A DNA stretch of 64,000 nt, taken from positions 149,327-213,326 of the forward strand of contig CAZKBP010000003.1 of assembly GCA_964551015.1 (NCBI GenBank), written 5' to 3'. Below are positions 37,614 through 42,007 of this stretch, one piece after another (position 1 is the first letter of the stretch; every line of letters starts with the position of its first letter). A program made the translations under genes and the position numbers. The stretch comes from an uncultured Cytophagaceae bacterium. GTDB lineage: Bacteria > Bacteroidota > Bacteroidia > Cytophagales > Microscillaceae. The notes beneath the pieces were generated by a model that saw nothing but the letters and a program-made list of their open reading frames with translations, was not told where the DNA came from and made no database searches.

Positions 37614-38480
37614 TTAAGGCTCTTGGCATACGCCAATAATCATGGTTTTATCATCAGGTTCGTGCTGGAGTTTGGGATTTCCTTCTCTAAGAAATTTGGC
37701 CCACTTGGCTTGCATTTCTTCTTGACTGAGTTGGTGTTTGGCCATTTGGCGGAGATTATTGACTACGGGATCGAAGAAACGATCAAAGGGAAGATTGGGA
37801 TCTTCGTATTTTTGTGTTTTCTCATCCCAGACATTACAGATAAAGGAATGCCTCTCGCAACCATCCGTGAGTAAGGAAAAAGCGCGGGGGGCATCCTCAA
37901 TCACGTGGCTTTTGACGAAAGTATCCATTTCTCCTTCATCCCAAATATCTGAGCTAATAAAAACGGTTTCATTAGCGTATTCGCCCCGCCAAGGCTCGAT
38001 CAATGCTTTCCATTTGCCCTCAGCGTCGCAGTAGCCAGCACGTCCGTCGCCCACGTGAGTTACGAGTAAGCCTTGTGGCTGGAAGATCAATAGAATCAGG
38101 GTGGAGGAAAGTTCTTTAAGATCGACCTGATGTTGACGTGCATAGGCCTCGAGTGCGGCTCTGAGTTGGCGTAGCGTTTTCTGAGAGAGCTTGTGCCAAG
38201 TTTCTATGGAAGGCAAGTTATAGGATTTTGTCCATTTTTGCTCGGCAATGAGTGCCTTAAAAAGGCGGGCAGTTTCTTCCACGACGAATTGCGAACCCAA
38301 GTGAGCGGCATCTACGGAGCCTGCCCCGTCGGCCACGATGGCGATTCCCCAAGAAGCTTCCAAATTTTCGTAATAATGGCTATCTTGACAGGGAATATTT
38401 TTTTTGAGGTGAGATTGTCCGGGTACGGAAGCCCCTACCACTGTCCAAGCACTGGGATGATCTTCTTTTGTTTTTGCCAT
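37614..38480 (-). CDS. PP2C family serine/threonine protein phosphatase (TerY-P triad phosphatase)
   Basis: 288 aa with metal-binding blocks GIAIVADGAGS, THVGDGRAGYC and LLTDGC. Confidence 0.75.
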   Translation of the reverse strand: MAKTKEDHPSAWTVVGASVPGQSHLKKNIPCQDSHYYENLEASWGIAIVADGAGSVDAAHLGSQFVVEETARLFKALIAEQKWTKSYNLPSIETWHKLSQKTLRQLRAALEAYARQHQVDLKELSSTLILLIFQPQGLLVTHVGDGRAGYCDAEGKWKALIEPWRGEYANETVFISSDIWDEGEMDTFVKSHVIEDAPRAFSLLTDGCERHSFICNVWDEKTQKYEDPNLPFDRFFDPVVNNLRQMAKHQLSQEEMQAKWAKFLREGNPKLQHEPDDKTMIIGVCQEP

Positions 38481-38540
38481 GAATTTTCGTCTGTCCTGTA
38501 ATGCACGCGAGCACTGGCTACCCAGTGAATCGCCCTCAAT

Positions 38541-39215
38541 CTATATCTCCATCTGCCCCCAACCAGAAGTGTCGGGGAAATAAACTTTATCACCTTCGTT
38601 GGATTTGGTAATAATACCGATGCTGTTGCTCAGCCATTGGAAGAATTCTATGAAATTCAATCCTTTGAGCATCATCGGTGGCGTACTGGGGTGGGCAATT
38701 TGTCTCAGGATTTCCATATTAGCATCTTGCACCCCAATGGGGAAGAACATGAATTTTTTCTCATTAACTCCCTCCGTGATCTCCAGCGTAATGCCTTCTA
38801 CATCTTGGTCTGAATCAGGTGTACCGTCTGTGATGAGAATAATAAAAGGTCGGTAATAGGATTGCCCTGTTTCTTTGTACCAGCGTTTACGAGCTTCTAC
38901 CTTTTCTACGGCTGCCCTCACGCCAGCTACCAGCTTGGTAGTACCACGAGCCTTGAGGATGGGCATCACAAATTTATCAATGAGGGCAGGTTCTTGTATG
39001 CATTTCACATTAGAATTGAAGGCGATGATAGAAACTTCCAATCTTTGGGAAGCAATTTCGTCATTTCGTACTTGACGATGAAATTCATCCAATCCACGGT
39101 TTAGTTCACGAATCCGTTCTCCGATCATGGAGCCAGATACATCCAGTACGAGTACACACAAACATTTTTGTTCAAAATTATCGGGCGTTTCTGCTGCAAA
39201 GTCGTCGAATGCCAT
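38541..39215 (-). CDS. TerY-like von Willebrand factor A (vWA) domain protein, copy 1
   Basis: 224 aa. MIDAS motif LDVSGSM. ILITDGTPD. No signal peptide. Confidence 0.8.
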   Translation of the reverse strand: MAFDDFAAETPDNFEQKCLCVLVLDVSGSMIGERIRELNRGLDEFHRQVRNDEIASQRLEVSIIAFNSNVKCIQEPALIDKFVMPILKARGTTKLVAGVRAAVEKVEARKRWYKETGQSYYRPFIILITDGTPDSDQDVEGITLEITEGVNEKKFMFFPIGVQDANMEILRQIAHPSTPPMMLKGLNFIEFFQWLSNSIGIITKSNEGDKVYFPDTSGWGQMEI

Positions 39216-39316: not shown

Positions 39317-41188
39317 CTAGGGTTTTCTTTGAGGAAGATCTTCTTGGGGAATGATTTTACCCCTTCGGTCAATCTGAAAGGTTTTGCCACGGATGGTTAC
39401 GCGCGCCTTGGCTCCTGAAAAGCTATTAGCCGAGTCGAATCGGAAATCAATCACTACTTCTCCTTTTTGATTAATATAGCCAAAGCGATCGTAATAGCGT
39501 ACCGCCGCTAAGCCTTCGTGGAAGGGATAGGCTTCATCGTAGCGATTCAAGATCACTTGATTACCCTTTGTGTCTAAGTAGCCGTACAAACCCTCTTTTT
39601 TGAAGATAGCCATTCCTTCACGAAATTCGCTGATCGCATCGCAATCAAGCTCAAAAAGTGGTTGATCCTGTTTGTTGATAAAAAAGTATCTATCTCCTTG
39701 CTTGACCAAGGCTCGTCCGTCGTGGAAAGGTTCCGCAAAATCGTATTTAGTGGCGATGGCTTCTCTGCCGTCTCGATCCACGAATCCATACCGGTGATTT
39801 TTCTCCACGCGGCCCATCCCGTTCTGAAAATCATAAGCCCAATCGTACTGGGGCTTGGTCAGTTCCCGACCGCTTTCGTGCATGTAGCCAAATTTGTTAT
39901 TGAGCATCACTTTGGCGATGCCTTCTCTAAAAAACTCCACATAATCGTATTGATCTACAAATTTTTGTTTCTTTTGGTAAGGAGTTTCCTTAGCATCTTG
40001 ATCTACGTCAGCATAGCGTTTCCGAAGGTCTTGCATCTGCCAATAGTTGGTAAAGCTCACCGTAGAGAAGGTAATAAGGAACAATAGCCCCACGATGGCA
40101 AACGCCGATAAGCTTCCACTGAAGGCGTGTGGAGCGTAATGAGAGATGCGCTCCACTTTGGGTTTTGGTTTGGGAGCTACTTTTGGAGATTTTTTGAATT
40201 TGAATTTTGTGCTGAGTGTAGGTACGAGTCGCGGACGAGGGCGAGCCTTGCTCAGTGCTTTGCACCAATCTGCAGCCGAGGGACGTTTGGAAGGTAAATG
40301 ATGCCCATCTTCAAAACAACGCAGGAAAAGCTTGCGAACTTTGCGAGGAGCTTCTTTGAATTTTTTGTGTGGCTCGGGAATCGTACTGAAAAACTCAGCC
40401 TTTTCGCCGTGAGGGAACAAACCCTCGACGATTTTTTGCTCATTGGAAACATGATTCTCATAAGAACCTTTGCAAGTACCTGCGTAAGGATGTAGACCAA
40501 ATAATATCTTGTAAAATAAAATCGAGATAGAAAAGCGATCCCAAGTTTCATCTACCAAATCTTCTTGAAGATTGGTGTCCAGGTACTCGGCAGGGCTGTA
40601 TTCGTGGGTCAGCTTTTCGGCAGGAAATAATAAATCATAGCCGTCGGCGATAGAAATGGAGTCAATATCCACGATCGAGATTCTACCGTCAAAACTGATT
40701 TTAATATTTTCGGGCTTGATGTCTACAAAGGTAAAACGGCGGGTACGATGTATCTGATTGAAAGCAGCTGCTACATTGTAGCATACTTTCATTCGGTTTT
40801 TGATGCCCATGGGGCTTTTACGACTGTATTTGTAATGCCATTCCTTGGGCAGTCGGGTGGAGTCGCTGAGGGTGCACAGGGAGGTTAAATCGTAAGCGCC
40901 GGGAGCCTTTTTCATCAAGAAACCGATGAATTGTCCATGATTATAGACTAGTTCTTCGGGAAAGATGACCGCGTAAGGGTCTTTGAGTTGAGGGCGATGC
41001 TGAATTAGATATTTAATCTTTTCCAACTTGAGGGGGGCGGCTTCTGCGTCTTTGTAGATTTTGACGACATAACCCTGCCAAGCGGCTGGAGCCTTTACTT
41101 CGTAGACATTTCCTTCGGCTCCTTCTCCGAGAGGTTCTGGGGCAATTTCAATGGATATCCACTGACTGGTTTGCAATTGAAGCGACAT
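39317..41188 (-). CDS. Membrane-anchored Ser/Thr protein kinase with C-terminal WG-containing repeat domain
   Basis: 623 aa. Gly-rich loop GEGAEGNVYEV, VAIK-like VVKIYKD, catalytic loop VDIKPENI, DFG-equivalent VDIDS. One TM helix (AIVGLLFLITFSTVSF). About 6 repeats of the type YGFVDRDGREAI / YGYLDTKGNQVI / FGYINQKGEVVI. Confidence 0.75.
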   Translation of the reverse strand: MSLQLQTSQWISIEIAPEPLGEGAEGNVYEVKAPAAWQGYVVKIYKDAEAAPLKLEKIKYLIQHRPQLKDPYAVIFPEELVYNHGQFIGFLMKKAPGAYDLTSLCTLSDSTRLPKEWHYKYSRKSPMGIKNRMKVCYNVAAAFNQIHRTRRFTFVDIKPENIKISFDGRISIVDIDSISIADGYDLLFPAEKLTHEYSPAEYLDTNLQEDLVDETWDRFSISILFYKILFGLHPYAGTCKGSYENHVSNEQKIVEGLFPHGEKAEFFSTIPEPHKKFKEAPRKVRKLFLRCFEDGHHLPSKRPSAADWCKALSKARPRPRLVPTLSTKFKFKKSPKVAPKPKPKVERISHYAPHAFSGSLSAFAIVGLLFLITFSTVSFTNYWQMQDLRKRYADVDQDAKETPYQKKQKFVDQYDYVEFFREGIAKVMLNNKFGYMHESGRELTKPQYDWAYDFQNGMGRVEKNHRYGFVDRDGREAIATKYDFAEPFHDGRALVKQGDRYFFINKQDQPLFELDCDAISEFREGMAIFKKEGLYGYLDTKGNQVILNRYDEAYPFHEGLAAVRYYDRFGYINQKGEVVIDFRFDSANSFSGAKARVTIRGKTFQIDRRGKIIPQEDLPQRKP

Positions 41189-41332
41189 ACATTTTAATGT
41201 TATCAGTGATTTAAGCGTGAATGTATTTTCCTTGCTCAGGTCAATAAGGCAAGAAAAAGGTTATCCGTTTAGATATATAAAATCCAGAAGCTAGGCTATT
41301 GTTTTGGTGTTTATCTATCCGTAAAAAAAGGC

Positions 41333-42007
41333 TTAGATAGCAATTTGTCCCCAATTACCTGTATCGGGGAGTTGTACCGTGGAGCTATCTTTGGAACGAG
41401 TAATCACCCCTACACTATTGCTCAGCCACTGAAAAAAATCAACAAAATTTAATCCCTTCAGCTTCATAGGAGGTGTACTCGGGTGGGCGATGTAGCGAAG
41501 TAGCTCCATATTGGCATTTTGCACCCCAATGGGAAAAAACAGGAACTTTTTATCGTTCACTCCTTGATTGACTTCAAACATGAGGCTTTCCATATCTTGA
41601 TCTGCATCCGGGTCTCCATCGGTCATTAAGATAATGAAAGGTCGGTAGTAGGGTTGACCAGTTTTGCGATACCACATTTTGCGTTGAGCCACTTTGGTGA
41701 TGGCTTCTTTCACACCTTTTTCTAGGCGGGTAGAGCCATTGGCTTGTAACTTGGGCATCTCGAAATTGCGGAGCAAGGTGGCTTCTTGGATACAACGCAC
41801 TCTGCTCTCGAAGGTGATGATGGCCACTTCCAACCTTTCGGCGGCGGTTTCGTCCTTGACTACTTGGTAGCGAAACTCTTGCAGACCTCGGTTCAATTCG
41901 TCAATTGGCTCTCCTACCATGGAGCCTGAGGTATCTAAAACCAAGATACAGAGGCATTTTTGTTCGTAATTTTCAGGTGTTTCTGCGGTAAAATCACTAA
42001 TCGCCAT
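41333..42007 (-). CDS. TerY-like vWA domain protein, copy 2 (paralog of 38541..39215)
   Basis: 224 aa. LDTSGSM MIDAS. Aligns end to end with copy 1 at roughly 60-65% identity, estimated by eye. Confidence 0.8.
   Translation of the reverse strand: MAISDFTAETPENYEQKCLCILVLDTSGSMVGEPIDELNRGLQEFRYQVVKDETAAERLEVAIITFESRVRCIQEATLLRNFEMPKLQANGSTRLEKGVKEAITKVAQRKMWYRKTGQPYYRPFIILMTDGDPDADQDMESLMFEVNQGVNDKKFLFFPIGVQNANMELLRYIAHPSTPPMKLKGLNFVDFFQWLSNSVGVITRSKDSSTVQLPDTGNWGQIAI

Follow-up and report, generated by a model that had tools for sequence, protein, structure and literature searches.

Described systems that bring together a von Willebrand factor A (vWA) protein, a PP2C phosphatase and a Ser/Thr kinase include the YegL, PphC (YegK) and YegI proteins of Escherichia coli and the TerY-P systems. 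YegI is an integral membrane kinase (10.1101/819920) whose autophosphorylation follows second-order kinetics, and PphC is an active phosphatase that dephosphorylates it (10.1101/819920, 10.1101/303594); neither the physiological role nor the substrates of the three E. coli proteins have been established (10.1101/819920, 10.1101/303594). TerY-P gives phage resistance by an unknown mechanism (PMC7699616; 10.1101/2022.08.12.503731), and systems have been validated in E. coli and P. aeruginosa (Gao et al. 2020; Costa et al. for the P. aeruginosa variant). The content of Gao et al. 2020 is given here second-hand, from PMC7699616, and that of Anantharaman et al. 2012 from PMC11090510. We describe a four-gene cluster of this kind in a stretch of 64,000 nucleotides from an uncultured Cytophagaceae bacterium (contig CAZKBP010000003.1), the whole of which is called the window. 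An earlier note on this DNA had read the cluster as a candidate antiphage signalling module and had cited the phage resistance and unexplained mechanism of TerY-P, as the sources above do. Our analysis favours, with a probability of roughly 0.55, a Microscillaceae-specific elaboration of the YegL-PphC-YegI/TerY-P phospho-switches, which would most likely be a signalling module of the chromosome, passed on by vertical descent and used to sense the envelope, the surface or the environment, and not a mobile, self-contained antiphage cassette.

The four genes occupy positions 37614-42007 on the minus strand, exactly where the earlier note had placed them. In order of transcription they encode vWA2 (41333-42007), a receptor Ser/Thr kinase (39317-41188), vWA1 (38541-39215) and a PP2C_2-family Ser/Thr phosphatase (37614-38480), with intergenic gaps of 144, 101 and 60 bp. 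Both vWA proteins are YegL/TerY-like and 224 amino acids long; they and the 288-residue phosphatase are cytoplasmic, and an N-terminal signal sequence was absent from all three when their sequences were read directly. Pfam bore out the PP2C, vWA, kinase and WG-repeat content that the earlier note had proposed, and the failure of the PP2C or kinase folds which it had named as grounds for refutation did not occur. The phosphatase matches PP2C_2 with an E value of 8.9e-39 over profile positions 2-205 of 209 and possesses the aspartate motifs of the family (CQD33, D51G, GD145G, TD206G and D276D277). The intergenic gaps contain no terminator-like sites on the minus strand, the single such site falling inside the kinase gene; a scan for Sigma-70 promoters and terminators performed at the level of shuffled sequence and was uninformative, Bacteroidota promoters lying outside its coverage.

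The 623-residue kinase is composed of a YegI-like Hanks kinase domain (residues 1-335, 40184-41188), one predicted transmembrane segment (residues ~359-377, 40058-40114) and an extracytoplasmic WG-repeat domain (residues 385-623, 39320-40036), all read from the minus strand. The match to Pfam Pkinase has an E value of 3.1e-15 and a score of 56.7 bits against a cut-off of 31.7, and WG_beta_rep is matched in six stretches (E 6.2e-56). Residues G21xG23xxG26, K43, D156-x-K158-x-x-N161, D174, P199-x-E201, D217 and R302 are present, and these columns are ≥90% conserved among 75 homologues. With its glycine loop, VAIK lysine, catalytic Asp, Lys and Asn, DFG aspartate and APE glutamate, the protein is predicted to be an active kinase by the Hanks-type criteria; it is of the non-RD type, with V155 ahead of the catalytic aspartate (FVD156 instead of HRD). 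The hydrophobic segment reaches a Kyte-Doolittle window score of 2.13 and is preceded by a K/R-rich stretch on its upstream, cytoplasmic side. Since the N-terminal flank of the single predicted segment is the one rich in lysine and arginine, the C-terminus is predicted to lie outside and the WG repeats in the periplasm; topology was assessed by Kyte-Doolittle hydropathy only. An AlphaFold2 model of the WG domain (mean predicted local distance difference test score, pLDDT, 95) is all-beta and propeller-like, with 20 strands. Its best fold matches in the PDB are the beta-propellers BamB (7ttc_B) and eIF2A (3wj9_B) at template modelling scores of 0.42-0.56, which are loose, so that a ligand cannot be inferred from them, and a PDB sequence search with the WG domain returned hits to the kinase domain only. 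The WG domain is a plausible ligand- or protein-binding sensor.

Relatives were collected by scanning one genome per species with a vWA profile, which yielded 136 relatives; the best 80 of the 136 loci were kept and each was searched with the window's own proteins. These 80 loci come from Saprospiraceae and Aureispira, Cytophagales and Chitinophagales, Herpetosiphon (Chloroflexota), Desulfococcaceae, Marithrix (Gammaproteobacteria) and Ignavibacterium, and the annotated source of the close homologues is metagenome-assembled genomes (MAGs) of Microscillaceae (Cytophagales, Bacteroidota). For most kinases encoded in the 80 loci, the catalytic domain is immediately followed by one, two or three hydrophobic segments. 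Membrane anchoring is thus the rule in this kinase family and is not distinctive, and it is the part after the membrane segment that varies, C-terminal sensor domains having been swapped between lineages. Saprospira kinases carry two hydrophobic segments followed by a Pfam-less C-terminal domain, which would be cytoplasmic under the YegI topology, Herpetosiphon kinases have nothing after the membrane segment, those of the Desulfococcaceae have one segment and then Lcl_C, another type has one segment and then SH3_3, and Microscillaceae-type loci have the WG repeats in this position. About 80 full-length homologues combine Pkinase with WG_beta_rep, and those whose source is named are nearly all from Microscillaceae or Microscilla. 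The earlier note had regarded both the membrane anchor and the periplasmic repeats as departures from the minimal triad; the anchor is shared with YegI and most of the 80 loci, while the periplasmic, fast-evolving, propeller-like WG sensor is indeed a distinctive feature of the cluster.

WG-repeat kinases also occur in tandem, three in locus L007 and two in L008, together with a stand-alone WG-repeat ORF. Among the homologues is a protein, P0237, which unites a TIR_2 domain and WG_beta_rep repeats; TIR is a domain known from immune and defence proteins.

Both vWA proteins score above the Pfam gathering threshold (vWA1, E 2.1e-11; vWA2, E 7.8e-10) and are 65% identical to one another without a gap. 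The MIDAS (metal ion-dependent adhesion site), called intact in the earlier note, is so: D25-x-S27-x-S29, T93 and D130 are kept in both proteins and are invariant in the alignments of homologues, which bear the name "uncharacterized protein YegL" in JGI. Across phyla the vWA proteins retain 55-60% identity and >45 invariant residues. The AlphaFold2 model of vWA1 (pLDDT 87) has the classical vWA fold, with the vWA domains of CMG2/TEM8, integrin I-domains and archaeal ArnB as its best PDB fold matches; in this Foldseek search the ArnAB chains 8s05_A and 8s05_B rank 13th and 15th, and ArnB is also the sole PDB match of the vWA sequence profile, at a marginal E value of 5e-4. The last helix of vWA1 (residues 188-203) bears the family-invariant motif W194-L-S196-x-S198, and just past it lies S205, which is nearly invariant.

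A neighbour-joining tree places all Microscillaceae-type vWA proteins in one clade, split into vWA1-type and vWA2-type subclades, both of which are present in at least seven genomes. This Microscillaceae-wide paralog split is a distinctive trait. The presence of more than one vWA gene, which the earlier note had listed as a further departure from the triad, is not: three occur in the ter archetype, a tandem pair in L062 and duplicates in CoCoNuT systems (PMC11090510). Only eight positions discriminate between the paralogs (47, 57, 65, 67, 81, 94, 199 and 217), and they are scattered; 65, 67 and 94 are near the MIDAS face, which is too weak a signal for assigning distinct ligands. In the neighbour-joining tree the vWA of Herpetosiphon branches as the sister of the Microscillaceae clade, a placement implying horizontal transfer. 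The high-identity vWA subfamily as a whole (L013-L080) is concentrated in taxa such as Saprospira, Aureispira, Microscilla, Thermoflexibacter, Herpetosiphon, Marithrix and Desulfococcaceae, and most of these taxa are filamentous gliding bacteria.

All three kinds of protein have counterparts in the systems named at the outset. By BLASTP, vWA1 is 41% identical to E. coli YegL over its full length (E 1e-44), the phosphatase 26% identical to PphC/YegK, also over its full length (E 4e-21), and the kinase domain 23% identical to YegI over residues 20-316 (E 8e-12). The ter cluster of plasmids provides a second set: in tblastn, vWA1 shares 28-29.5% identity with plasmid TerY and TerY-C proteins over 82-84% of the query, and the ter-cluster phosphatase (25%, E 5e-12) and kinase (25%, E 4e-11) are homologous to those of the window, the two kinases sharing the C-lobe motif F..F.DG.H.PSKRP.A.-W..AL. 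The archetype used here, L091 (Klebsiella plasmid NZ_CP057460.1, 56155-70700), encodes in succession a vWA protein, TerD, a second vWA protein, a vWA-TerY-C protein, PP2C and kinase. Homology of all three proteins to both sets places the locus in the broad TerY-P/YegL class, in agreement with the kinship claimed in the earlier note, and by the identities (41% against 29%) it is closest to the stand-alone YegL type, not to TerY. Of the elements by which comparative genomics recognizes TerY-P, a vWA protein with MIDAS, a clustered PP2C and a clustered kinase of the YegI/TerY-P type are found in the cluster.

The PADLOC check proposed in the earlier note matched no TerY-P model. The sole match of the TerY model in PADLOC-DB 2.0 is vWA2, at an E value of 0.0025 and with no stretch passing the threshold by itself, and vWA1 gave none; the kinase matches only the generic kinase models mad6 and PD-T4-6, and the phosphatase, weakly, only PDC-M21C. 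In control scans the TerY model missed not only YegL but also the triads of Saprospira and Herpetosiphon and the TerY proteins of the ter cluster, those of L091 included. The model is therefore narrow, and the negative result means only that the locus is not close to the validated system. The kinase, furthermore, has no C-terminal cytoplasmic OB fold or Zn ribbon, the transmembrane segment and WG repeats standing in that place instead. Membership in the validated antiphage TerY-P subfamily is not supported.

vWA, PP2C and kinase genes occur together in 47 of the 80 related loci, all in other genomes, and in the order vWA-PP2C-kinase in 46 of those; the three families co-occur across at least five phyla. 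Co-occurrence on this scale points to a conserved system and not to chance. Between the vWA and PP2C genes of Microscilla and the marine bacterium AO1-C stands a Pfam-less ORF of 556 amino acids (L007, 10840-12510; L009, 10809-12479). The order of the window, vWA2-kinase-vWA1-PP2C, is distinctive and unusual. L003/L083 has vWA2-kinase-vWA1-PP2C-kinase, an arrangement suggesting that a canonical vWA1-PP2C-kinase triad gained a vWA2-kinase pair on its upstream side and that its downstream kinase is missing in the window. The WG-kinase gene lies immediately downstream of vWA2 in the window and in L001, L003, L014 and L015.

The proteins differ widely in their rate of change. Synonymous sites are saturated between the available genomes, so that dN/dS (nonsynonymous over synonymous divergence) is not usable, and the comparison of the window with L001 was restricted to dN and amino-acid identities. 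vWA1 is 97% identical at the amino-acid level and 80.7% at the nucleotide level to its orthologue in L001 (10001-10672), with a dN of 0.025 and a saturated dS; the neighbouring MogA-like protein, taken as a baseline, is 80% identical between the two, vWA2 73%, the phosphatase 59% and the kinase 53% as a whole (67% in the kinase domain, 40% in the ectodomain). vWA1 is thus under exceptional purifying constraint, being more conserved than its housekeeping MogA-like neighbour, and the WG sensor ectodomain is the most labile and fastest-evolving part of the cluster.

Around the cluster (window 23783-53444) all 30 annotated ORFs are of the housekeeping kind, among them GroEL, a major vault protein homologue, RluA, a methyltransferase, an M28 peptidase, HxlR, an F420-type oxidoreductase, a PAS histidine kinase, MogA, a metallophosphoesterase, DinB and a transporter. 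The ten nearest ORFs gave no meaningful PADLOC hits. No tRNA, integrase or flanking repeats bound the cluster, the only tRNA being 14 kb distant, and its G+C content equals that of its surroundings; relatives in viral contigs were not found. The MogA-like gene, a lipoprotein-like ORF of 382 amino acids and RluA are syntenic in L001 or L003, and the conservation of these flanks in such diverged loci indicates vertical descent. With housekeeping flanks, no boundaries, no viral relatives and conserved synteny, the antiphage reading of the earlier note finds no backing in the genomic context.

The window, L001 and L003 carry the triad genes as a linked set; in at least two related MAGs they are fully dispersed. 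In JAABSX01 a vWA1 orthologue (87%) stands alone between cell-wall and sugar-nucleotide genes, vWA2 and its kinase are on a second contig (L014), and the PP2C gene is on a third among housekeeping genes; CAYZQI01 shows the same dispersal over three contigs. In both MAGs the orthologues of vWA1, of vWA2 (whether or not the kinase accompanies it) and of PP2C are surrounded by housekeeping genes. The separation of the genes in relatives, which the earlier note had said would tell against it, is thus a fact in these two genomes and does not hold for the family at large (47/80 loci with all three).

These findings can be assembled into a working scheme. The single-pass membrane kinase would expose its propeller-like WG domain to the periplasm and be activated when this binds an envelope or external cue, probably through oligomerisation and autophosphorylation as has been demonstrated biochemically for E. 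coli YegI. Its cytoplasmic domain would then phosphorylate vWA2 and/or vWA1, for which the phosphorylation of the archaeal vWA protein ArnB by the kinase ArnC (PMC6509490) offers a precedent. Phosphorylation may alter MIDAS-dependent binding of a conserved cytoplasmic partner, and the PP2C phosphatase would reset the switch. vWA2 is the likely kinase-proximal adaptor or substrate, because it is linked to the kinase and evolves with it, and the evolutionary rates suggest that vWA1 is the output element, binding a highly conserved cellular partner.

Several points weigh against a housekeeping signalling module of this description. Systems of the same broad class have been validated against T7-like phages and Autographiviridae (PMC7699616; 10.1101/2022.08.12.503731). 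In other lineages, where 121 neighbours of 22 triads were scanned without a matched control and not as an enrichment test, the genes beside triads include restriction-modification (RM), BREX-helicase, Shango, CARF, transposase and PIN genes, and also housekeeping genes such as those for transketolase and TruB. L092 (Methylocystis rosea plasmid NZ_CP044330.1, 119091-122520) is a YegL-type triad on a mobilisable plasmid where it adjoins a HipA-HTH pair; it consists of a vWA protein 42.5% identical to vWA1, PP2C and an unannotated 648-residue protein with weak matches to the kinase-type PADLOC model PD-T4-6. Part of the wider family is therefore mobile and defence-associated. The rapid divergence of the ectodomain and the tandem WG-kinases of the Microscilla loci would fit an arms race equally. 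Finally, the topology of the kinase is predicted from hydropathy alone, the four genes may be co-transcribed, as no terminator-like site lies in the intergenic gaps, but the promoter scan does not cover Bacteroidota promoters, and the substrate and the division of labour between the paralogs at this locus are putative.

On such grounds the cluster could be a dedicated antiphage variant of TerY-P. Its periplasmic WG domain would then sense phages attacking the envelope, and infection would be stopped by the switch of kinase, vWA protein and PP2C. It belongs to the same triad class as the validated E. coli and P. aeruginosa systems (PMC7699616; 10.1101/2022.08.12.503731; PMC11090510), its sensor has diverged to 40% identity where vWA1 keeps 97%, WG-kinase paralogs stand in tandem in L007 and L008, WG repeats are found fused to a TIR domain in P0237, and some triads of the wider family adjoin RM, BREX, Shango, CARF and transposase genes. 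We regard this explanation as a rival still to be reckoned with, but a rather unlikely one. PADLOC finds no TerY-P match, the validated or CoCoNuT-linked forms have an OB or Zn-ribbon tail that is missing from this kinase (PMC11090510), and the flanks are housekeeping genes without defence matches; mobile-element signatures are wanting at an unaltered G+C content, inheritance is vertical with conserved flanks, the genes are spread over separate housekeeping loci in related genomes, vWA1 is conserved beyond a housekeeping neighbour, and none of the relatives is in a viral contig. A more particular version, which we think unlikely, is surveillance in the manner of pattern-recognition receptors: fast-evolving periplasmic WG propeller domains on non-RD receptor kinases would sense structures of phages or of other foreign origin at the envelope, vWA2 would pass the signal on as an adaptor matched to the kinase, the ultra-conserved vWA1 would receive it and clamp a conserved host machine via its MIDAS, and PP2C would reset the circuit. 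If this were true, it would represent a chromosomally fixed, partly unlinked defence of the TerY-P class that senses outside the cytoplasm, and would open a route to the TerY-P mechanism with the vWA protein as effector.

The housekeeping signalling reading may also be narrowed. By analogy with ArnA, ArnB and ArnC the switch could regulate surface structures, gliding or multicellular behaviour, a proposal that is decidedly improbable in this specific form. Of the solved proteins, the one nearest by sequence profile is ArnB, and the ArnAB chains are among the fold matches of vWA1; ArnB is phosphorylated by ArnC and regulates the archaellum (PMC6509490, PMC5300886), and the vWA subfamily clusters in such taxa as Saprospira, Aureispira, Microscilla, Herpetosiphon, Marithrix and Thermoflexibacter. 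This phyletic pattern, however, could equally come from horizontal transfer among co-habiting taxa, the similarity to ArnB is weak (E 5e-4), the extra domains which bear the ArnB phosphosites (PMC6509490) are absent, and the neighbourhood contains neither an FHA partner nor motility genes. Sensing of metal, tellurite or oxidative stress, with the MIDAS as metal sensor in the way of the ter-linked TerY modules, is very improbable. A metal-sensing phospho-switch is what the TerY-P triad has been proposed to be (Anantharaman et al. 2012, cited in PMC11090510), and vWA1 shares ~28-29.5% identity with plasmid TerY proteins encoded beside TerD, PP2C and kinase; yet it is nearer to the stand-alone YegL type than to TerY, TerD, TerZ, TerC and other ter genes are absent among the annotated neighbours in the window (23783-53444), and a periplasmic propeller-like domain points to a non-metal, macromolecular or envelope input. 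That the four genes are merely adjacent and share no function is hardly credible: although orthologues are unlinked in some related genomes, all components are retained even where dispersed, the three families co-occur in 47/80 loci from at least five phyla, and each of the three has a homologous counterpart both in the E. coli yeg operon and in the ter cluster.

Among the neighbours, the 382-residue ORF (44834-45982, minus strand) has a lipoprotein-like N-terminus and no match in Pfam or PADLOC. Its orthologues (L001, 6071-7147; L003, 5665-6666) lie directly upstream of vWA2 on the same strand, and in the window the PAS histidine kinase gene (42183-44441, plus strand) separates the two. It may be a fifth, periplasmic component or simply a conserved neighbour. 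Further away, the 833-residue major vault protein homologue (30750-33251, minus strand) matches MVP_shoulder (1.5e-30), Vault_3 (2e-09) and Band_7 (8e-06) and is close to GroEL (27612-29258), and a Uma2-family, putative restriction endonuclease-like protein (24935-25516, plus strand) is encoded beside PhoH.

Triads of vWA, PP2C and kinase are widespread and some are validated as antiphage systems. The present lineage is informative in having shifted the input domain to the periplasm, in dividing the vWA protein between two paralogs and in keeping the components even where they are unlinked. The conservation of vWA1, the paralog split and the survival of unlinked components make the vWA protein stand out as the switch's constrained core. 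These points also suggest that part of the TerY-P class does ordinary cellular signalling, not defence, which calls for caution in automated annotation of defence systems from domain content alone.

Of the described systems, the E. coli yeg operon resembles the locus in its small stand-alone MIDAS vWA protein, in the homology of all three proteins, in a kinase anchored in the membrane just after the catalytic domain and in its chromosomal location. It differs in having one vWA gene and the order vWA-PP2C-kinase (yegL-pphC-(yegJ)-yegI), against vWA2-kinase-vWA1-PP2C in the window. YegI, moreover, does not have the catalytic-loop asparagine (10.1101/819920), which is N161 in the window kinase, and the YegI type is double-pass with a cytoplasmic C-terminal domain, whereas here one transmembrane segment and an outside C-terminus are predicted. 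The antiphage TerY-P systems likewise unite a TerY-like vWA protein, PP2C and a Ser/Thr kinase in one cluster, but their validated kinase ends in a C-terminal OB fold (PMC11090510) where that of the window has a transmembrane segment and periplasmic WG repeats, and they were discovered as cargo of defence islands, in contrast to the housekeeping context and vertical inheritance found here.

The ter cluster shares with the locus the presence of several vWA paralogs (three) with one PP2C and one kinase. Its module, however, belongs to a tellurite-resistance gene set on conjugative plasmids of Klebsiella and other Enterobacteriaceae, one of its vWA proteins has the metal-binding TerY-C domain, its PP2C carries an N-terminal extension of ~300 amino acids, and its 499-residue kinase is assigned to the InaA family, an annotation which by itself gives no sign of a WG ectodomain. 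CoCoNuT systems of types II and III-A also contain the vWA, PP2C and kinase triad with duplicated TerY-like vWA genes (PMC11090510); in these systems the kinase carries a fused Zn ribbon and McrBC-type restriction operons enclose the triad (PMC11090510), and McrBC-type restriction genes are not among the annotated neighbours in the window (23783-53444). In the Arn system, ArnB is a cytoplasmic MIDAS-containing vWA protein which eukaryote-like kinases phosphorylate, which a phosphatase resets and which serves as a phospho-dependent switch for protein binding (PMC6509490, PMC7472852), although its phosphosites are on beta-sandwich and four-helix-bundle domains that the window vWA proteins do not have (PMC6509490), its partner is an FHA protein and its phosphatase is PP2A, not PP2C. 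Set beside these systems, the description that suits the locus best is that of a YegL/TerY-P phospho-switch in a new form, with a receptor kinase and two vWA proteins.

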